Source: an uncultured Bacteroidaceae bacterium (GTDB lineage: Bacteria; Bacteroidota; Bacteroidia; Bacteroidales; GCA-2748055). From it: a stretch of DNA of 28,833 bases. Each line of letters opens with the position of its first letter. Position 1 is the stretch's first letter. The stretch is from positions 17,539 through 46,371 of the forward strand of contig CAZKMG010000001.1 of assembly GCA_964553465.1 (NCBI GenBank), written 5' to 3'. The notes below the pieces were generated by a model that was not told the DNA's origin, did not search any database, and saw only the letters and a list, made by a program, of their open reading frames with translations. Of this stretch, positions 1,560 through 28,833 are shown in pieces. The position numbers were made by a program, and so were the translations under genes.

Positions 1560-3365
1560 TCATTTTTTTAGTATCGCCCAATTTCCTGAATAATATGCTT
1601 TATCTATCAATTTAATAAAATTACTATCATTCTTCACTTTGGCCATAAATCGTAAATCCTGGTATATATAAAAGTTAAGCCAGTAACCATAATCATATTT
1701 TTCCTGCTTGGTACGCGGACTCATATAGAAAGAATACCAATCGGGATTAATTTGGTAATCCCTTGCGATTAAAATTGCCTCCATGGCCCTGTTCCATATC
1801 TTTTCTGTAATCCTGGTAAACAAGTTTTGAAAATCGGTATAATTCATTCCGGAAGTTTGTATTAGCTCACATTTGTCATCTATTTCTAATTCTTTCAATG
1901 AGATTTTGTCTTCCATGATTTTATCTCCATCGAGATCATACTCAATAAGGTCAATAAAACCATTCAGGTCAGTATCAGTATATTTTACCACAGCAAACTT
2001 TTCGGGTTCGAGTTGAATCCGGCTACCTTTCCATCGGTCATAAATACCACCAAATTCCTGAAAGGAAAATGCAGTCTGATCGATTCTCCAGGCTCCCCAT
2101 TCAGCACCGAATAAATGTATCCGATCATCAAAAGTTCCTATATATAGCTGGGCCCTTCCTGAAAAGTCTGCATCCCACTCACCTCTGTCACCCATTTCAT
2201 CTGCCTGGGCATTATTATCAAGCCCCCCTTTATTTCTTCCAAACAGATACAGGTCTTTTGGATCGTAAAACTCAACTCTTTCCCAACGGTTACAATCATC
2301 ATCCTCATCAAATACCAAACAACAATCTGTCCATTGACCTTTATTAAAGATTAAGTCCCACGCAGTTTTCCGATCAGGATATATTAATTCTTCGATCTGC
2401 CTCCACCGGGCATCATAAAAAAATTTATTGGCTTCAGGAAGCCCACGTAAACTTTTGTATGGATGAACCTGATCCGAATAATCGAATCCAGGTCCTTTTA
2501 GCCGAAGACTCATATCAAAATCAAATTCATTCCCCTGGCCATTATCGTTATCCAAATCCCATGAGATCCTTACATCGTCTATTTTTTTTGTGAACAGAAC
2601 ATCGACTTCTTTGTCTACATTCAAAAATTCCTTGTCGATTTTATCCTTTTGTCTGAAATGTGGAGTGTCAACCAATCGGATTGTCCATTCCGATAAGTTA
2701 TCCTCATCTATATCGTAAAAAATAAAAGGATTTTCCCAGCTATAGCGCATGTCTCCTATACGAAAAGAAGAAGCATGCATCTTCAGAAATAAAGTATTTC
2801 CAAGATAATCCTCGAAAAAATTTGAATGTCCACTATGTTCCCAGGCTTGCATCCGGATGGCATTCCAGTTTACGTAATGCTTAATATTATCCTTCTCAAG
2901 ATCAATAAAAAACATAAAATCAGTATCCCAATCGAAAAAATATCGTTTACTTATATCTCCGTTTTGTACAACTAATTGTATATCAGCAATACCATCGCCA
3001 TTCTCATCACTCCAGTCGATACTCAGGTCATTTGGACCGGCAAATATATTATCACGGTTGCGATCGATAAGTAAACAATCATTATCAATATCACCTTCTA
3101 AATCACCTACCTTCATATCATCGTCGTCGTCAACCCAAAGGATAGGGATAGAATCATAGATGAAGGATTTAAGGATGTCAGGATCGGTATCATTATCGAG
3201 ATCAATATACTCAATTTTGGAAGGGTTATTTGCAAGAGGTAATCGCCATGGTGTCAGATATGTATTTCTATTCCAATAGTTTAATGATTGAGTATCCTGA
3301 CAAAAGGCTGAAATTATTAGCACTGAAAATGCTATTGCTGTAAGAAATCTTTTCATGTGTTTCAA
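1560..3365 (-). CDS. Exported Asp-rich hypothetical protein with many Dx[DN]xD-type putative Ca2+-binding loops
   Basis: 601-aa ORF with an N-terminal signal peptide (MKRFLTAIAFSVLIISAFC-Q). Repeated loops include DLDNDTDPD, DENGDGIAD, DIDEDNLSE, DLDNDNGQG, DTDLNGFID and DLDGDKIME. Confidence 0.8.
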   Translation of the reverse strand: MKHMKRFLTAIAFSVLIISAFCQDTQSLNYWNRNTYLTPWRLPLANNPSKIEYIDLDNDTDPDILKSFIYDSIPILWVDDDDDMKVGDLEGDIDNDCLLIDRNRDNIFAGPNDLSIDWSDENGDGIADIQLVVQNGDISKRYFFDWDTDFMFFIDLEKDNIKHYVNWNAIRMQAWEHSGHSNFFEDYLGNTLFLKMHASSFRIGDMRYSWENPFIFYDIDEDNLSEWTIRLVDTPHFRQKDKIDKEFLNVDKEVDVLFTKKIDDVRISWDLDNDNGQGNEFDFDMSLRLKGPGFDYSDQVHPYKSLRGLPEANKFFYDARWRQIEELIYPDRKTAWDLIFNKGQWTDCCLVFDEDDDCNRWERVEFYDPKDLYLFGRNKGGLDNNAQADEMGDRGEWDADFSGRAQLYIGTFDDRIHLFGAEWGAWRIDQTAFSFQEFGGIYDRWKGSRIQLEPEKFAVVKYTDTDLNGFIDLIEYDLDGDKIMEDKISLKELEIDDKCELIQTSGMNYTDFQNLFTRITEKIWNRAMEAILIARDYQINPDWYSFYMSPRTKQEKYDYGYWLNFYIYQDLRFMAKVKNDSNFIKLIDKAYYSGNWAILKK

Positions 3366-7438: not shown

Positions 7439-8698
7439 CTACTGGAATGCTGAACACACTTCATCTAATCCTACCCCGAATATTTGTTCACATATTAAAT
7501 CCAGCTTTTTTTTGTCCCCGGAAAGATGAACTGTCCGGTGTATATGGGTAATTGAATTTCCTGGTTCAAGGAAAGCTGCAGGTGAAGAAGTCTCCAGTTC
7601 AAAGTACTCACCAAGTTGGGGCCCATTATCAACCGGACCATCATTGTATGAGTTCAAAACATCACCTGAAAACGGATTTTTTTGAATTTCAAGCATTGAA
7701 TTAACATATTCTGTTACATTTTTCTCCATGCTAATATTTACAATAGTGAGTACATTCGTTTTTTCATTGTAAGTCCCCATATAAGGTAAGGCTCTTTTTG
7801 GACCGATCCCCAGTTTGCTTTTATATTTCCCATCCCCCTTGAAAAACATCACCTGTTCTTTTATAATAAGCCTTTCAGGAGGGATCTTTCCAAAATAATG
7901 ATCATTCACCACCGGTCCTAAGTTCAAAGTATCACCTTGTTTAAAAGGTATAATAATGGTTGTGAACTCAGATGCCTGAAACATGCCAAGTATCCATACA
8001 GATAAAGCACCAGTTTCTCTGGTCCAGGATTTATTACCTGTATTCGTTATTTTATTTATACTCTCAAAAGCAACAAAATCAAGACCTGCCGAATTGACAC
8101 ATAAAACTTTACTTATCTCTTCGATATTCAATAGATTGATTTCACGCTCAACGAGAAGTGTAAATCTATGACCTGAATAATTGAGAAGAGATAAATTTCT
8201 TTTAAAACTTGCAGAAGTATTTGTATGTTGAATAAGATCGAAAGGTTCAATGTCAATTTCTTTGGGCACCTGCCAATTTGATGATTCAAAAGTTACCCCT
8301 GGTTTAAAAAATAATGAGAATTGCCCACCTTCTGGCCCGAGCCAGAAACGGTCCTCTCCTCCGAAAGGATTAATATTTGATTTTACTTCCCTACTATGAA
8401 TCAATTCATGATTTATCCAGCCCAGGCTTATTCCATTATTCCCATTAAAGGAACTTGTCATGACCCTTCCTTGCCATAAGGGACTCACAACTACCATTGA
8501 TTTATTCAGAGAATCATGAAGGATAACAATTTCATGGTGGTTTTTAAGTATTTCAAGATCAAATCCAAAGGAACCAGGCATGAATTCATTAATTATATTT
8601 GATGATGATATTCCAGGATCTTTCTCTTTCCCTGCCTGGTTTCTACATGCATTCAAAGATATGATCGATACGATGATGATAAAAGTTTTTATTTTCAT
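7439..8698 (-). CDS. Lipoprotein of unknown function, DUF6786-like (predicted galactose-mutarotase-like beta-sandwich)
   Basis: SpII signal ending LNAC. Motifs LGWIN, PFGGEDRFWLGPEGGQFSLFF, YNDGP and ELETSSPA. The family name is from recall, not a search. Confidence 0.7.
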   Translation of the reverse strand: MKIKTFIIIVSIISLNACRNQAGKEKDPGISSSNIINEFMPGSFGFDLEILKNHHEIVILHDSLNKSMVVVSPLWQGRVMTSSFNGNNGISLGWINHELIHSREVKSNINPFGGEDRFWLGPEGGQFSLFFKPGVTFESSNWQVPKEIDIEPFDLIQHTNTSASFKRNLSLLNYSGHRFTLLVEREINLLNIEEISKVLCVNSAGLDFVAFESINKITNTGNKSWTRETGALSVWILGMFQASEFTTIIIPFKQGDTLNLGPVVNDHYFGKIPPERLIIKEQVMFFKGDGKYKSKLGIGPKRALPYMGTYNEKTNVLTIVNISMEKNVTEYVNSMLEIQKNPFSGDVLNSYNDGPVDNGPQLGEYFELETSSPAAFLEPGNSITHIHRTVHLSGDKKKLDLICEQIFGVGLDEVCSAFQ

Positions 8699-25061: not shown

Positions 25062-27614
25062 TTACTTTACCAATTCACTTTCAACTCCGGAAACCAGAAC
25101 CTTTTTAATGTCCAGGTTTCCATATGCCATCTTAATAAATGGTTTGTTGTTTTTAAGACCGACATTTCCAAATCCTGTTTCGGCAGATAGGAAGCTTGTA
25201 AAGTCTCCTATCCTGGAATCGATATACAGGATCTTGTCAACTGCATCGAAGCGAACCCCGGTCATACCCTCCAATAAGGCATAACTTGCCATTGCCCTCG
25301 CATACCAGTGCCCACACTCATATTCATCGAAAGGATTCCTTATACTTCCATCATAACGGTTACGGCAAATACGAACAATTTCCAATCCCTTTTCGATTTC
25401 TCCCATGAACATTAAATGGGAGGCCACCTGGTATTCAATACCGGTCCACACTTCATCGCTATACACAAAGGGGAGTGAAGGCTTTTCTCCTTTGGGCCAC
25501 GTACATAAAAGAAGCCCTCCCTCATGACCGAGAGCATAGGTCGAACGCTGTGGATTCGGATGATCGCTCAAATCGTTTTTAAGGTTGTTTTTATAAACTG
25601 ATAACACGTGAGATTTAATTTTATTGGCATCAATTGGATCTGGCAATCCACAAACTCTTGCCATCCAGCATCCAAGTACTCCATCGGAAAGGCATCCGTC
25701 ACCATACTGGTATTTTGGACCTTCTCTTTGCAGAACAGCGATAGCTTCGTTCGAATAATTCCCCCCTATGGATTTTTTCGATGCCTCAACCGGATCGGGA
25801 GCATTCAAATCAGTCCATTGAATTTTCTGAATGAAATACTCTCCATTAAACAATATATTTTCCATGAACTGTTTCCCATTTTGATAAAGTTGCTGATATA
25901 AAATCACATCCTCCGAAATGAACTTACCCATTTCGCAAATTGCGTTGAGCGCGCCCAGATAAATGCTTGTGATCATCCCATCAGATCCCCAGAATTCAAT
26001 ATCATATGTGTTATGATGAGGTTCCTCAATCACTCCCTTATGTCGGGGATCCCAGGTTTCGATGCAATAATCCATGCTTGATTTTATTTTAGGGAAAAGT
26101 TTTTTCATCCATGTATTATTCCCACTTATTTTCCAATCCCGGTAGATTTTCATTATTCCGCCCAATTGTCCGTCGGAAGCGGCATAAAATTGATGATCAA
26201 CCGGACGGATGGGAAGGGCAGACCTGAAAGTCTGATGGCCTTCCTTATTTTGACTTTCGTTAAACTCTGTCTCACGTAGTGTCCTTTCGAGTGATGGAAA
26301 CATATGGCACAAAGCCTGAGCATAATTCCACACATGGGTGCATGAACCTGCACAGCAACCGGAATTATCATTACATCCTTCCCATGCCCATATTTTCCCA
26401 TCACGCTGGCGCATAACAGTTGGAGATTTTAAAATGGTCAGATTGGCTGCGATGGCTTCCAATACTTCTGCAGGCAGAGAACTTGCGTAAAAAGCATCTG
26501 AAAAAAGCCGGGATTTGCTTTTCAGATCAGGATAATGAATCTTCCAATAGTTTGTAACCTCTCTTATATTGCTGAATTTTCCGGAATACCATGGTTGATA
26601 ATACGGAGAAATGCAACAGCCAGTTGAAGGATCGCATTTTGGAGCATCATAGGGGTCTTTTCCAGTCCGGATATCTGAATCAGGAACATACCATGAGAAC
26701 ATAAGGTGAATAGTCGTTTCTCCCCCGGGAGCAACTTTAATGGGAACAAAAAGGGAAGCACCAGGAGCGTCCTTTTCGATCGGAGGATTTGACTTAAGAT
26801 TCGCTTGTTCTACATTTTCCCAGACCATTGTAAGAGGATCATTCCATCCTCCCCGAAACCAGCAATGATCAGTAACCGTTGATAACTGATCAGTAAAAAC
26901 AACAAAATCCCCTTTTAATTGGGCAGCCTTGTCTGCTTTCATCTGGGAAAGAACAAAACCGTTTTTAACAGGCAGGATGGCATTGATCCCTTCTTTTTGA
27001 CTCATGAAATTCACTGAGTGAAAGGAAAATACTGCATCGATCATCTTATCCCCACGATTTATAAAGGAATATTCAACCGCCCCAACCGGTAAACTTGAAT
27101 TATCAGGATCGGTTGGAATAAATGGGCTCCATCCTGTCAAACGCACTTCAAGAGGGATGTCCTTATCGGAAAGTATTATATATGCGAAGGGAAACCGGCA
27201 GAGAAACTCAGCGTTTTCAAATCTGGGTAAACCATATGATGTGTGTCCACCTCCCCGCGCTGCATTGGGCCGGCCGAAATATTTCCATTCAGGAACAGGC
27301 CCCTCAAGAACTTTAGCTCCGTCTTTTAGCCCTTTAACTGCAAGTGCAGCAAACATCAATGGCTCGTTAAAGACATCCATAGAATTACGAACGGAAACAT
27401 GAGAAAACGCTCCTGTACCTTCGAGGCAAAACATCCCCGCACCAATACCTCCAATAGGGAAAGCAATCCGGTTGAGATCTTTCCCCTTATAAACTTCATT
27501 ATATTTTCGAGTACCTGATTCCTGATCCTTTGCATCCGTGAAATTCGATTGGTCACATGATTGAAATACTATATTTATAGTAATCAGTATTATAATATAT
27601 TTTGTTTGTTTCAT
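25062..27614 (-). CDS. GH116 family glycoside hydrolase (GBA2-like beta-glucosidase/glucosylceramidase), lipoprotein
   Basis: SpII signal ending FQSC. Motifs IAFPIGGIGAG, RFPFA, AWEG (nucleophile region), GSCTHVWNYAQ, DGQLGGI, HNTYD (acid/base region), EVWTGIEY and ECGHWYARAMAS. Confidence 0.92.
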   Translation of the reverse strand: MKQTKYIIILITINIVFQSCDQSNFTDAKDQESGTRKYNEVYKGKDLNRIAFPIGGIGAGMFCLEGTGAFSHVSVRNSMDVFNEPLMFAALAVKGLKDGAKVLEGPVPEWKYFGRPNAARGGGHTSYGLPRFENAEFLCRFPFAYIILSDKDIPLEVRLTGWSPFIPTDPDNSSLPVGAVEYSFINRGDKMIDAVFSFHSVNFMSQKEGINAILPVKNGFVLSQMKADKAAQLKGDFVVFTDQLSTVTDHCWFRGGWNDPLTMVWENVEQANLKSNPPIEKDAPGASLFVPIKVAPGGETTIHLMFSWYVPDSDIRTGKDPYDAPKCDPSTGCCISPYYQPWYSGKFSNIREVTNYWKIHYPDLKSKSRLFSDAFYASSLPAEVLEAIAANLTILKSPTVMRQRDGKIWAWEGCNDNSGCCAGSCTHVWNYAQALCHMFPSLERTLRETEFNESQNKEGHQTFRSALPIRPVDHQFYAASDGQLGGIMKIYRDWKISGNNTWMKKLFPKIKSSMDYCIETWDPRHKGVIEEPHHNTYDIEFWGSDGMITSIYLGALNAICEMGKFISEDVILYQQLYQNGKQFMENILFNGEYFIQKIQWTDLNAPDPVEASKKSIGGNYSNEAIAVLQREGPKYQYGDGCLSDGVLGCWMARVCGLPDPIDANKIKSHVLSVYKNNLKNDLSDHPNPQRSTYALGHEGGLLLCTWPKGEKPSLPFVYSDEVWTGIEYQVASHLMFMGEIEKGLEIVRICRNRYDGSIRNPFDEYECGHWYARAMASYALLEGMTGVRFDAVDKILYIDSRIGDFTSFLSAETGFGNVGLKNNKPFIKMAYGNLDIKKVLVSGVESELVK

Positions 27615-28185
27615 ACTGTGCGGACATTAAATGAATTTGATAAGTGAAGGTTTGGCACCATGGCGATTTTAATATTATATCATCATAAATTCCCTGAAGA
27701 ATTGCAGGTTAGAGAATAACATTTGACATGAGCAATAGGAGCTGATATTTATATCGATGCCGTTAAATCAAGACTGAGATAAACCATTTCCTATCAGAAT
27801 GCAAAATAATGAAAAAGCAAAAACTCTCATGGGTATCAGAATTAGTGTATATTTTAGAAATATTAAAACAAGATATTTAAAATTGTCAAATAAGCAAAAT
27901 TCAATTAAACTACAGATATCCAATCAAATGTATTAAATCGTTCAGGAATATAATAATATAAAAAGGATGATTAGTTTTAACATTTTTATTAATTCAAGCT
28001 GATTTTATAAAAATATTTGCATAAAGGTTAGAAGGGTGGGGGTTTAGCCATCCCCAACAATTGATTATATTATATTCTACGAAAGTGTTGGATAATAACA
28101 CAAAATAAATTTTTCATATTATTATATAATTATTCGTATCAGAATGAAAAATTCAAAGAATAAAAAATTTGATTTTTAATATCAT

Positions 28186-28214
28186 TTTGCCAAATGACTA
28201 TTTCATTATATTTG
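28186..28214 (+). promoter_or_regulatory. Bacteroidota -33/-7 promoter upstream of the tRNA-like repeat array
   Basis: TTTG (28186-28189), a 17-nt spacer, then TATATTTG(CA) (28207-28214), about 80 nt before repeat copy 1. Confidence 0.6.
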
Positions 28215-28293
28215 CATCGGAATTTTAGGATATCATAATTTCGTTATTTGCCTCCTCCGTTGGCAGGGCGTCAATAATGGGAAATAAAAAAAC

Positions 28294-28372
28294 CGGGGTG
28301 TAGCGCAGTTGGTAGCGCGTGGCGCTGAGGCGCCAAGACCGGAAGTTCGCTTAAAAAAGCAGGAGAAAATAA
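28294..28372 (+). repeat. tRNA-Pro-derived repeat, copy 1 (3'-truncated pseudo-tRNA plus A-rich tail)
   Basis: CGGGGTG-TA-GCGC-AGTTGGTA-GCGC-G-TGGCGC-TGAG-GCGCCA-AGACC-GGAAG-TTCG-CTTAAAAAAGCAGGAGAAAATAA. No 3' acceptor strand or CCA. Confidence 0.9.
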
Positions 28373-28614
28373 GATTTCACACTTACATATTATATAGTAA
28401 ATCACGGGATCTCTACTACATTGGCCATACAGAAGATATTTCAAGGAGATTGATAGAGCATAATAAAGGGTATTGCAGGTGGACCCGGTCAGGTGTTCCA
28501 TGGGAACTTTTTTATCAGGCAGAATTTTCAAGCAAAGGGGAGGCAATGAAATTAGAAAACAGGATCAAAAAACGAGGGGCATCGCGATATCTAAATGATA
28601 TAGGATTTACCTGA
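28309..28614 (+). CDS. Small GIY-YIG nuclease family protein (start codon uncertain)
   Basis: FHTYILYSKSRDLYYIGHT..ISRRLIEHN..Y.RWTRSGVPWELFY...EA.KLE..IKK shows the GIY/YIG, Arg, His and Glu motifs. The domain begins at about 28375. The only upstream in-frame starts are TTG at 28309 (inside the repeat) and ATA at 28369. Confidence 0.88.
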   Translation: MVARGAEAPRPEVRLKKQEKIRFHTYILYSKSRDLYYIGHTEDISRRLIEHNKGYCRWTRSGVPWELFYQAEFSSKGEAMKLENRIKKRGASRYLNDIGFT

Positions 28615-28666
28615 TAATCATTTTAATTTGCGATAAGAATACTTACTTTTATGATTCAAAAACAAT

Positions 28667-28745
28667 CGGGGTGTAGCGCAGTTGGTAGCGCGTGGCGCCA
28701 GGGCGCCAAGACCGGAAGTTCGCTTAAAAAAGCAGGAGAAAATAA
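28667..28745 (+). repeat. tRNA-Pro-derived repeat, copy 2
   Basis: Identical to copy 1 over 79 nt except the hairpin loop (CAGG instead of TGAG, 3 substitutions). Confidence 0.9.
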
Positions 28746-28791
28746 AATTAATTTGGGATAAGAATAATTACTTTTATAATTCAAAAACAAT

Positions 28792-28833
28792 CGGGGTGTA
28801 GCGCAGTTGGTAGCGCGTGGCGCCAGGGCGCCA
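28792..28833 (+). repeat. tRNA-Pro-derived repeat, copy 3 (cut by window end)
   Basis: The 42 visible nt are identical to copy 2, at a 125-nt period. Confidence 0.9.

Follow-up and report, generated by a model that had tools for sequence, protein, structure and literature searches.

A 28,833-nucleotide stretch of DNA from an uncultured Bacteroidaceae bacterium (contig CAZKMG010000001.1, positions 17,539 to 46,371; hereafter the window) ends in an array of three truncated, tRNA-Pro-like repeats, or pseudo-tRNAs, and a gene for a minimal GIY-YIG nuclease lies between the first and the second of these. The initial annotation of the window proposed that the nuclease and the repeats form one unit, and our bioinformatics analyses strongly support this proposal at the sequence level because the arrangement recurs in many unrelated genomes. 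As judged from these loci, what recurs is a minimal nuclease gene, or open reading frame (ORF), placed within a tRNA transcription unit and flanked by arm-swapped, defective copies of that tRNA; the window is a local, tRNA-Pro example of a phenomenon that spans many tRNA types and is not specific to tRNA-Pro. The reading we favor, to which we would give an even chance, is that the locus is a selfish, homing-type nuclease cassette for which a tRNA gene would serve as target, homology arm, and promoter. This reading further holds, with the same balanced confidence, that the locus in the window is a tandemly amplified and partly decayed copy of such a tRNA-resident GIY-YIG cassette. Every functional statement made below is an inference from sequence.

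Recurrence beside tRNA genes and the arm-swap hairpins

About 270 loci from Bacteroidota, Patescibacteria, and other phyla were fetched by homology-seeded searches, each contributing at most 80-120 matches. Adjacency, defined as an ARAGORN-predicted tRNA within 160 nt of the ORF, was counted in a diverse set of 60 loci from species-representative genomes and metagenomes, with nuclease homologues of 35-55% identity, and in a Flavobacteriaceae set made up of the best 80 of 368 genome matches found with a narrow subfamily alignment. A same-strand tRNA neighbor was present at 40 of the 60 diverse loci and at 74 of the 80 Flavobacteriaceae loci (114/140 combined), and no tRNA on the opposite strand was found within 160 nt of the ORF at any of the 140 loci. 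The tRNA neighbors represent at least 13 isoacceptors, and clustering of the proteins showed that each nuclease clade holds one tRNA identity and one polarity, the tRNA-linked clades being those of Val, Leu, Gly, Asn (two clades), Ala, Asp, and Pro (several clades), together with Tyr, Ser, and Thr in Patescibacteria. The classical YhbQ-like branch, recognizable by its C-terminal ..KGWSRAKKEALI.., has no tRNA neighbor and clusters apart from the tRNA-associated branch. Homologous GIY-YIG genes were seen in the company of such repeats in well over a hundred loci; a same-strand tRNA adjoins 114 of 140 genes, and an ORF comes after 110 of 169 listed hairpins.

Two polarities can be distinguished. 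In the "down" type, found in the window, its nearest relative L032, L002, L003, and the Flavobacteriaceae loci, a pseudo-tRNA is followed by an A-rich leader, the ORF, and the real tRNA. In the "up" type (L009-L024 and others), the real tRNA is followed by an intrinsic terminator, an ATG only a few nucleotides on, the ORF, and a pseudo-tRNA. In both polarities, the 3' end of the ORF enters the 5' half of the tRNA or tRNA-like unit, often borrowing its TAG as a stop codon; this stop is U8-A9-G10 in Flavobacteriaceae (..TTC GGG GTG TAG) and in L003 and the TAG of the D arm in L009, L013, and L018. It is of note that, in L036-L115, the last ~12 nt of the ORF (GATAACCAWTT) also precede the left-most pseudo-tRNA, where there is no upstream ORF (e.g. 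L103, L048, and L084); this motif may be either the native 5' flank of tRNA-Pro reused as the C terminus of the ORF or a fixed remnant of a duplication boundary.

In the loci inspected, every pseudo-tRNA duplicates the local tRNA, with one arm exchanged for a perfect GC-rich hairpin and the T arm destroyed. Hairpins of the form YCCCG..CGGGR occupy the position of the anticodon arm in more than 25 loci from several phyla, covering eight isotypes, whereas GTCACGC-N3-6-GCGTGAC replaces the T arm in every Flavobacteriaceae cassette inspected, including those that ARAGORN miscalls as tRNA-Pro; many of the Flavobacteriaceae pseudo-tRNAs have the D or anticodon arm exchanged as well. The copies of tRNA-Tyr in Patescibacteria carry an insert exactly between nt 34 and 35. 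Some of these pseudo-tRNA-Tyr units (L002:2895-2990; L007:2887-2980 and 3241-3320) have two GC inserts, CCCCGCC..GGCGGGG in the D loop and TGCCGCC-N3-GGCGGCA between nt 34 and 35, followed by the truncation and then by the ORF. When hairpins were tabulated with a simple perfect-stem finder, 321 perfect GC-rich hairpins lying outside real tRNAs, ORFs, and terminators were counted in 150 kb near the ORFs, compared with 95 in 340 kb of flanking sequence, a 7.6-fold higher density, and the characteristic stems were absent from these 340 kb of flanks of related loci.

The hairpins vary in a structured manner. Among 32 distinct anticodon-position hairpins picked by hand from the output of the finder, stem positions 2-5 are essentially invariant, position 1 alternates between T-A and C-G on both sides, three to four types of Watson-Crick pair occur at positions 6-7, and 30 of the 32 loops differ. 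The T-arm hairpin of Flavobacteriaceae likewise has an invariant stem with at least 12 loops of varying length and lies 15-24 nt before the ATG in 76 cases; because loop length varies, a folded hairpin is favored over a palindromic site in duplex DNA. The Flavobacteriaceae leader folds better than shuffled sequences (z -2.5), and the acceptor pairing of the Flavobacteriaceae pseudo-copies has decayed.

The pattern was also approached from the hairpin side by scanning species genomes for GGTCGTCACGC-N3-6-GCGTGACCACC, which returned at least 169 sites in at least 120 loci. At 110 of the 169 listed sites, a GIY-YIG start comes within the next 45 nt. A further 14 listed sites belong to 40-nt mini-arrays, and about six are chance matches to GC-rich genes in phyla that are unrelated; the other listed sites are mostly solo units directly after a real tRNA-Pro, ORF-deleted units (L161, L167, L207, and L267), or cassettes with a collapsed ORF (L178 and L193). 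The mini-arrays have a 40-nt period and up to seven copies (L184:1344-1610; also L172, L181, L168, L202, and L222). Their unit reads GAGGTC + GTCACGC-loop-GCGTGAC + CACCCCGAC followed by an A-rich segment, which corresponds to the 3' half of tRNA-Pro with its T arm swapped, and they stand directly downstream of real tRNA-Pro genes with no ORF inside the array.

Copy number also varies across the collection. In 29 of 155 loci, the ORF is present in two to four tandem copies that repeat every 317-360 nt; arrays without an ORF extend to seven units in L184, to five in L013, and to five or more in L009, and degenerate ORF stubs stand next to tRNAs in L029 and L152-154. In 51 of 151 loci, no more than 500 nt separate the cassette from a contig end, as would be expected if the repeats break assemblies. 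The truncated units of the 5' type break in the T loop, at GTTCG|CTT in the window, GTTC|TTTG in L003 and L009, and GTTC|TTAA in L013 (the L009 and L013 junctions were read by eye).

The array in the window and its nuclease gene

The 26-nt core CGGGGTGTAGCGCAGTTGGTAGCGCG occurs exactly three times in the window, at 28294, 28667, and 28792 and always on the + strand, whereas 100 dinucleotide-preserving shuffles gave an expectation of 0. This agrees with the three GC-rich units of the initial annotation: 28294-28350 contains 39 G+C in 57 nt, set in an upstream intergenic stretch of 185/679 (27%) and a window of 36% overall. Each unit begins with the 5' acceptor strand CGGGGTG, TA, and the D arm GCGC-AGTTGGTA-GCGC, then a G, followed by a perfect 6-bp hairpin (TGGCGC-(TGAG or CAGG)-GCGCCA), the variable region AGACC, and GGAAG-TTCG. 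Past TTCG it runs on as CTTAAAAAAGCAGGAGAAAATAA, with neither a 3' T stem nor a CACCCCG acceptor strand. Direct reading therefore bears out the earlier description of an intact D arm, a 5-nt variable region, and a 5' T arm after which the resemblance to tRNA stops, and of an anticodon arm replaced by a 6-bp TGGCGC/GCGCCA stem with a 4-nt loop. The AAG-TTCG-CTT mini-hairpin also suggested there is absent from the predicted minimum-energy structure, in which GCUU and AAGC are paired instead. As for the extent of the unit, the three tRNA-like copies stand, and the real period (28667 to 28792) is 125 nt because an A-rich tail and an AT-rich spacer are included.

Copy 1 (28294-28349, + strand) is identical to a real tRNA-Pro(CGG) over nt 1-26, has its anticodon arm replaced by the hairpin TGGCGC-TGAG-GCGCCA (28320-28335), which stands at tRNA positions 27-43 where the real tRNA has CCACGTTCGGGACGTGG, retains the variable region and the 5' T stem, and breaks after the T-loop TTCG. 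The A-rich leader CTTAAAAAAGCAGGAGAAA (28350-28368, + strand) separates the broken T loop from the nuclease core, and related leaders of the TTGAAAA type precede the ORF in L003, L002, and L032. After the ORF comes an AT-rich spacer, TAATTTGCGATAAGAATA..TTCAAAAACAAT (28615-28666, + strand), which is common to all units (repeat family D1, 93% identity). Copy 2 (28667-28722, + strand; hairpin 28693-28708, loop CAGG) is followed by the leader and spacer of an ORF-less unit (28723-28791, + strand), and copy 3 (28792-28833, + strand; hairpin 28818-28833) is cut within its hairpin by the end of the window at 28833. Copy 1 can thus be described as the 125-nt unit with an ORF between GAAAATAA and TAATTTG. 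The ORF is absent from copies 2 and 3, in the former from between GAAAATAA and AATTAATTTG; the deletion end points bear the imperfect direct repeat GAAAATAA / GATAATCA. By their sequence, copies 2 and 3 are ORF-less derivatives of a copy-1-type unit, like the deleted cassettes found elsewhere. The second unit has a 39-codon ORF at 28682-28801 (LVARGARAPRPEVRLKKQEKIKLIWDKNNYFYNSKTIGV*), whose start, a D-loop TTG, corresponds to that of the nuclease ORF and which ends at the GGG GTG TAG of the next unit, a tRNA-supplied stop as in the Flavobacteriaceae nucleases (..FGV*). This small ORF is probably a relic of the deleted nuclease ORF.

The repeats are not recognized as tRNAs. ARAGORN, from which a pseudogene or no call had been anticipated, found 0 tRNA genes in the whole window, and the Rfam tRNA model (RF00005) reached at most 16.3 bits against a 29-bit threshold, and only on the end-cut copy 3. 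The units lack the complete cloverleaf of a tRNA, having no 3' acceptor strand and a loop of 4 nt instead of a 7-nt anticodon loop, and single-sequence folding gave the window units no extra stability over shuffled sequence (z -0.5 and -0.2). Upstream of copy 1, the motif TATATTTG (28207-28214, + strand) fits the -7 element TAnnTTTG, the established promoter consensus of Bacteroides, with a TTTG 17 nt upstream (28186-28189). It is the single + strand occurrence of TAnnTTTG within 27600-28833, and the same motif stands just 5' of the first pseudo-tRNA in L013, L009, L084, L056, L037, and L095. It is likely to be the promoter of the whole array.

The origin of the repeats is best seen at the locus of P0001, the one homologue that comes close to the nuclease (93% identity), on the independent 984-nt metagenome contig L032. 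Its order is an ORF whose start is missing, spacer, pseudo-tRNA, ORF, spacer, intact tRNA-Pro(CGG), and terminator, and its pseudo-tRNA has the same TGGCGC-TGAG-GCGCCA hairpin as copy 1 of the window. The two loci differ at 12 positions in 321 nt, and because L032 is an independent contig with sequence differences, an assembly artefact is unlikely. Nucleotides 1-26 of the intact tRNA-Pro(CGG) in L032 are exactly those of the window repeats, which substantiates the proposed derivation from tRNA-Pro; compared with this tRNA, the repeats have the hairpin in place of nt 27-43 and the leader in place of everything past the T-loop TTCG. The repeats are thus defective versions of a real tRNA gene that neighbors them. 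The array was read only up to 28833, and what follows copy 3 is deduced from L032 alone; most likely, a real tRNA-Pro(CGG) adjoins the array just past the end of the window, as in L032. The end of L032 cuts through a match to the fluoride riboswitch (crcB motif; 944-984, 31.6 bits), which lies ~190 nt past the intact tRNA-Pro(CGG) and hints at the sequence that may follow the window array beyond its end. Exact and degenerate DNA patterns of the window unit had no match in the genome or metagenome contig collections, which evidently omit L032. The adjacent real tRNA as a source, the status of copies 2 and 3 as ORF-less derivatives, and the range of tRNA types had all escaped the initial annotation.

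The gene between copies 1 and 2 was correctly assigned to the GIY-YIG family (PF01541, 55.5 bits against a cut-off of 22.6, E 7e-15), and the only other Pfam match of the ORF is the related T5orf172. The 81-aa nuclease core spans 28369-28614 on the + strand (stop TGA 28612-28614). The longest frame starts at a TTG in the D loop (28309) and would give 101 aa, the optional N-terminal extension of 22 aa being translated pseudo-tRNA, and the 81-aa core is the entire protein. The first codon of the core is ATA where relatives have ATG, and this holds in the window, in L032, and in all three ORF copies. Between the window and L032, the extension has 3 synonymous to 1 non-synonymous substitutions, numbers too small to be firm, and the core has a dN/dS (ratio of non-synonymous to synonymous substitution rates) of ~0.25-0.45 relative to the L032 copies, again from counts too small to be firm. 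From its sequence, the nuclease gene looks to be under constraint, with its start codon at either ATA 28369 or TTG 28309.

The catalytic residues Y6, Y17, R27, H31, and E63 are invariant in a 37-sequence family alignment that includes the window protein. The AlphaFold2 model (predicted local distance difference test score 93.6), with strands and helices at E3-10, E15-21, H24-33, E45-53, and H56-69, predicts the beta-beta-alpha-beta-alpha GIY-YIG core. Sequence matches to solved structures were 1zg2 (E 6e-6) and 1ywl (E 7e-4), and the nearest Foldseek matches were UPF0213 BH0048 (1zg2, E 1.8e-4) and the Slx1 nuclease domain, with template modeling (TM) scores of 0.64-0.71 and 28-33% identity; Slx1 6seh aligns to the model with a TM score of 0.70, a root mean square deviation of 2.1 A, and 31% identity. 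The UvrC N-terminal domain and the I-TevI catalytic domain match the model more distantly. On this model, the protein is a complete but minimal Slx1/UPF0213-like GIY-YIG catalytic domain. A profile search of 1.84 billion representative proteins yielded 5,051 clusters at E<=1e-10, not all of them in the tRNA-linked branch, and 20,608 at E<=1e-3, which makes this branch of the superfamily a large one. No relative above 49% identity was found in a scan of metagenome proteins, and viral contigs gave no relatives. A conserved N-terminal domain in database proteins was considered and rejected, the extensions being heterogeneous and resembling gene-caller artefacts. Two predicted proteins of 204-214 aa (P0070 and P0071) consist of two GIY-YIG domains joined via a translated pseudo-tRNA, tandem cassettes being in frame.

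Readings of the cassette

Under the reading that we favor, the Slx1-like nuclease would break the DNA of a tRNA gene. The site would be the very arm that the decoys show as swapped or broken, or else folded or branched DNA to which the tRNA-like palindromes give rise. Recombination would then repair the break, the identical tRNA segments that flank the ORF acting as homology arms, and the ORF would be copied into unoccupied tRNA alleles; unequal repair would generate tandem arrays and ORF-less units such as copies 2 and 3 of the window. The ORF would have no promoter of its own and would be expressed at a low level from the tRNA promoter, and the swapped hairpins would render the duplicate useless as a tRNA while probably also giving the nuclease or its mRNA a specific structural element. 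Which arm is always exchanged depends on the clade: isotype-specific clades have the anticodon arm replaced and the tRNA-Pro(TGG) clade the T arm, as would be expected if the swapped arm marks the nuclease site. In phage T6, the GIY-YIG enzyme SegB cuts within tRNA genes at RAWTSGAAC, and tandem amplification of the tRNA-Tyr/segB segment needs both SegB nuclease activity and homologous recombination (PMC13096335). By our reading, RAWTSGAAC reverse-complements to GTTCSAWTY, a motif of the T loop. The T-loop breaks and the clade-specific arm swaps fit a SegB analogy. Of the three options offered by the initial annotation, a homing element at tRNA loci is the best fit, although targeting of tRNA-Pro only does not hold because many isotypes are involved.

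Several observations weigh against this selfish homing reading. Both the cleavage and the mobility of the cassette are inferred. The 81-aa protein contains no DNA-binding domain like that of SegB or I-TevI, and the NCBIfam model of intron/Seg endonucleases (TIGR01453) scored only 13.2 bits against a cut-off of 56 (E 0.07). The ORF in the window, having no ATG, may be poorly translated or decaying. A scan for empty sites, in which tRNA-Ser(GCT) would be followed by an intact tRNA-Pro(TGG), gave 0 matches and is uninformative as a test. One syntenic site holds the Flavobacteriaceae cassette in hundreds of species, so that vertical inheritance or domestication fits as well. The real tRNA beside the ORF retains the unswapped arm and therefore is not immune to a nuclease recognizing that arm. 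Finally, simple destruction of a target site does not explain why the hairpins are so conserved: the base of the stem is invariant, the distal pairs covary, and the loops are free.

In an alternative that we consider rather unlikely, the arm-swapped pseudo-tRNA is chiefly a structured leader or trailer of the nuclease mRNA, that is, a cis element acting at the RNA level. With the T arm or the anticodon arm exchanged for a stable hairpin, the unit would no longer be handled as a tRNA by RNase P, RNase Z, or the translation machinery; the mRNA would stay intact, including a stop codon in the U8-A9-G10 of the next tRNA, translation would be set low, and the repeats would exist because the ORF needs a leader and not through DNA cleavage. 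This is in agreement with the 76 hairpins that lie 15-24 nt before an ATG and are followed by an A-rich leader, with the covariation of distal stem pairs and freedom of the loops, with the folding of the Flavobacteriaceae leader (z -2.5), with the stop codon that a tRNA 5' end or D arm gives to the ORF in many lineages, and with the promoter motif 5' of the first pseudo-tRNA. It leaves unexplained the ORF-less arrays and the 40-nt mini-arrays downstream of real tRNAs and gives no reason for a local tRNA duplicate to arise at every new tRNA type. The window unit, which has no 3' acceptor strand and no folding signal, and the Flavobacteriaceae pseudo-copies, which are losing their acceptor pairing, also speak against it. 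An RNA-level role is moreover compatible with homing and so is not a true alternative. A different view, which we hold to be improbable, is that of a domesticated host nuclease, minimal and of the Slx1 type, that has been retained in tRNA operons to deal with branched DNA, R-loops, or stalled forks where tRNA genes are very highly transcribed; collateral scars of its activity would then account for the pseudo-tRNAs and arrays. The closest characterized structural relative, Slx1, is indeed a branched-DNA nuclease, the cassette has a single syntenic site across Flavobacteriaceae (368 genome matches), the protein is under purifying selection, and viral contigs yielded no relatives. On the other hand, the ORF is frequently deleted, truncated, or frameshifted, with copy numbers from 0 to 4, each clade is bound to one tRNA isotype and not to tRNA genes generally, and the conserved hairpins would have no explanation.

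The hairpin, or the whole tRNA-shaped fold, could also be a single-stranded DNA or RNA ligand that directs the nuclease, the units being functional ends of the element or RNA cofactors, an explanation that would cover the element similar to REP/RAYT and the guide or decoy RNA of the initial annotation and that we find more doubtful again than domestication. The invariant stem base with free loops of 3 to 6 nt indicates a folded hairpin, autonomous and ORF-less units occur side by side, and structure-selective GIY-YIG enzymes exist, namely Slx1 and Hotaru, the latter of which cuts cruciform stems (bioRxiv 10.64898/2026.03.19.713005). The units are not dispersed, however, with 0 stems in the 340 kb of flanks and 3 in the window, all at the locus; they contain no variable guide segment and match no Rfam family, and the 81-aa catalytic domain has no obvious RNA-binding module. 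The initial proposal of an element resembling REP/RAYT lacks support in its original form, the hairpins being confined to the tRNA locus and the enzyme not being an HUH transposase, and that of an array of tRNA mimics serving as guides or decoys is unsupported, there being no guide-like variable segment (only loops of 3-6 nt differ) and, in the window units, neither a 3' acceptor strand nor a structural signal, although the hairpins may still have a role at the RNA level. There is also a narrower proposal, which we regard as unlikely and place between the RNA-level and the domesticated explanations, namely that the pseudo-tRNA is a specific ligand of the minimal Slx1-like nuclease. The enzyme would read a tRNA-shaped branched fold, with hairpins of the YCCCG/CACGC type as an address tag; this fold would be either RNA or DNA, in the latter case a cloverleaf or hairpin adopted by the displaced strand where a tRNA gene is highly transcribed. 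The roles of the hairpin as a ligand, as a block to RNA processing, and as a part of homing do not exclude one another. It is, lastly, scarcely credible that the array is a decayed and functionless local tandem duplication of tRNA-Pro with a coincidental nuclease gene, or an artefact of assembly. The three visible copies, the end of the window within the third, and the absence of a thermodynamic signal would suit this view, but the same architecture is found on an independent contig with sequence differences and recurs in well over 100 loci across many lineages and tRNA types, and the replacement of an arm by a perfect hairpin is unlike neutral decay.

Known systems, surroundings, and meaning

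The closest known system is that of the SegB-type free-standing GIY-YIG genes in phage tRNA clusters. As reported, SegB of phages T4 and T6 resembles the cassette in being encoded by a GIY-YIG gene among tRNA genes (PMC2330249; PMC13096335), and SegB homologues are, as is the nuclease here, statistically tied to tRNAs of many isotypes (PMC13096335). SegB is phage-borne and has a DNA-binding region, whereas the present protein is an 81-aa catalytic domain on a bacterial chromosome, and the sections consulted of the SegB papers make no mention of arm-swapped pseudo-tRNAs with conserved hairpins. Of the features of a free-standing homing gene, adjacency to tRNA genes is overwhelming and ORF-less or ORF-deleted units are present, and no clean empty orthologous site was recovered.

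By sequence and structure, the best matches are the UPF0213/YhbQ-like family (COG2827) and the Slx1 domain, which have the single-domain size and the catalytic residues in common with the window protein, and the latter falls within the ~80-100 aa size class of UPF0213/YhbQ-like proteins. Slx1 acts with Slx4 on branched repair intermediates, and we know of no link of UPF0213/YhbQ or Slx1 to tRNA genes or pseudo-tRNA repeats. Partial tRNA copies that flank DNA inserted beside a tRNA gene are also left by integrases, which duplicate a short 3' segment of the tRNA at the far end of a large island; here, by comparison, the insert is one gene of ~250 nt, the repeats are 5' parts, arms have become hairpins, and the units are in tandem. 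A prophage att site was rejected as no integrase was seen among the sampled ORFs of the window and the wrong end of the tRNA is repeated. REP/RAYT and the IS200/IS605 TnpA systems share with the cassette a conserved hairpin with an invariant stem and a free loop, a single nuclease gene, and units with or without an ORF. Those enzymes are HUH (Y1) nucleases, whereas the enzyme here is of the GIY-YIG family and the hairpins are built into a local tRNA copy at the tRNA locus; the dispersal typical of REP was not seen, the three window copies being at one locus and the stems absent from 340 kb of flanks in a survey of loci and their flanks. Nor do the units behave as an RNA-guided array of the CRISPR or OMEGA/IscB type, since those of the window vary only in the 4-nt loop and a few spacer bases and have no Rfam match.

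GIY-YIG enzymes are classic intron-encoded endonucleases, and the Patescibacteria inserts between nt 34 and 35 resemble group I introns in lying at the anticodon. Group I introns bearing homing endonucleases are reported to insert in the anticodon loops of bacterial tRNAs (PMC3984707). The inserts here are 16-40 nt, too small for a ribozyme, the copies are defective, and the ORF lies outside the tRNA-like unit; a tRNA intron was rejected on the size of the inserts and the truncation of the copies, and a functional split or permuted tRNA on the absence of a 3' half in the units of the window and L032. In the literature, we found no account of arm-swapped pseudo-tRNAs with minimal GIY-YIG genes, though subscription journals are poorly covered and an earlier description is possible, and Rfam scans matched no family other than tRNA. 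We therefore rate as new the conserved, hairpin-bearing pseudo-tRNA component that is added here to a tRNA-associated free-standing GIY-YIG element.

The remainder of the window is ordinary chromosome, with genes for a GH116 protein, a nucleoside hydrolase, an RND efflux system, and PriA, and no recombinase or integrase genes were present among the ORFs sampled. The best match of PriA has 67% identity, and its matches in uncultured Bacteroidales/Bacteroidota have at most 58%; matches this distant place the host in a poorly sampled lineage of Bacteroidota. The AT-rich intergenic region 5' of the array contains imperfect inverted repeats (27946-28127; 32-nt arms at 75% and 17-nt arms at 82% complementarity), within which lies a small GC hairpin (~28036-28056); no tie of these repeats to the cassette was found. 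An Rfam match to CRISPR-DR46 at 27884-27940 (19 bits against a 50-bit threshold, E 6.8) is AT-rich and was judged to be due to chance. Uncharacterized proteins are encoded at 7439-8698 and 1560-3365 (- strand), where a DUF6786 match (E 3e-151) and a 601-aa ORF without a Pfam match at E<=1e-5 were noted.

If the selfish homing reading is true, the cassette would be a compact selfish element made of a nuclease of ~80 aa and a decoy of a host tRNA, resident in the tRNA operons of several phyla. Such an element would remodel these operons through pseudo-tRNAs, tandem arrays, and changes in copy number, would break short-read assemblies, and would extend the nuclease-driven amplification of tRNA segments, of the SegB type, from phage to cellular genomes. 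Annotators would gain a reason for thousands of orphan "GIY-YIG family protein" entries and for spurious tRNA and pseudo-tRNA calls, and the loci would provide a natural series of tRNA-shaped substrates with which to study how a minimal Slx1-like enzyme finds its target. Should the nuclease read the pseudo-tRNA as its ligand, mobile or regulatory elements addressed by structure would form a new class, found in several bacterial phyla and comparable, on the GIY-YIG side, to the hairpin-recognizing transposases. The conserved hairpins pose a puzzle that can be put to the test, and there are cultured carriers in Arenibacter, Maribacter, Gelidibacter, and Winogradskyella.

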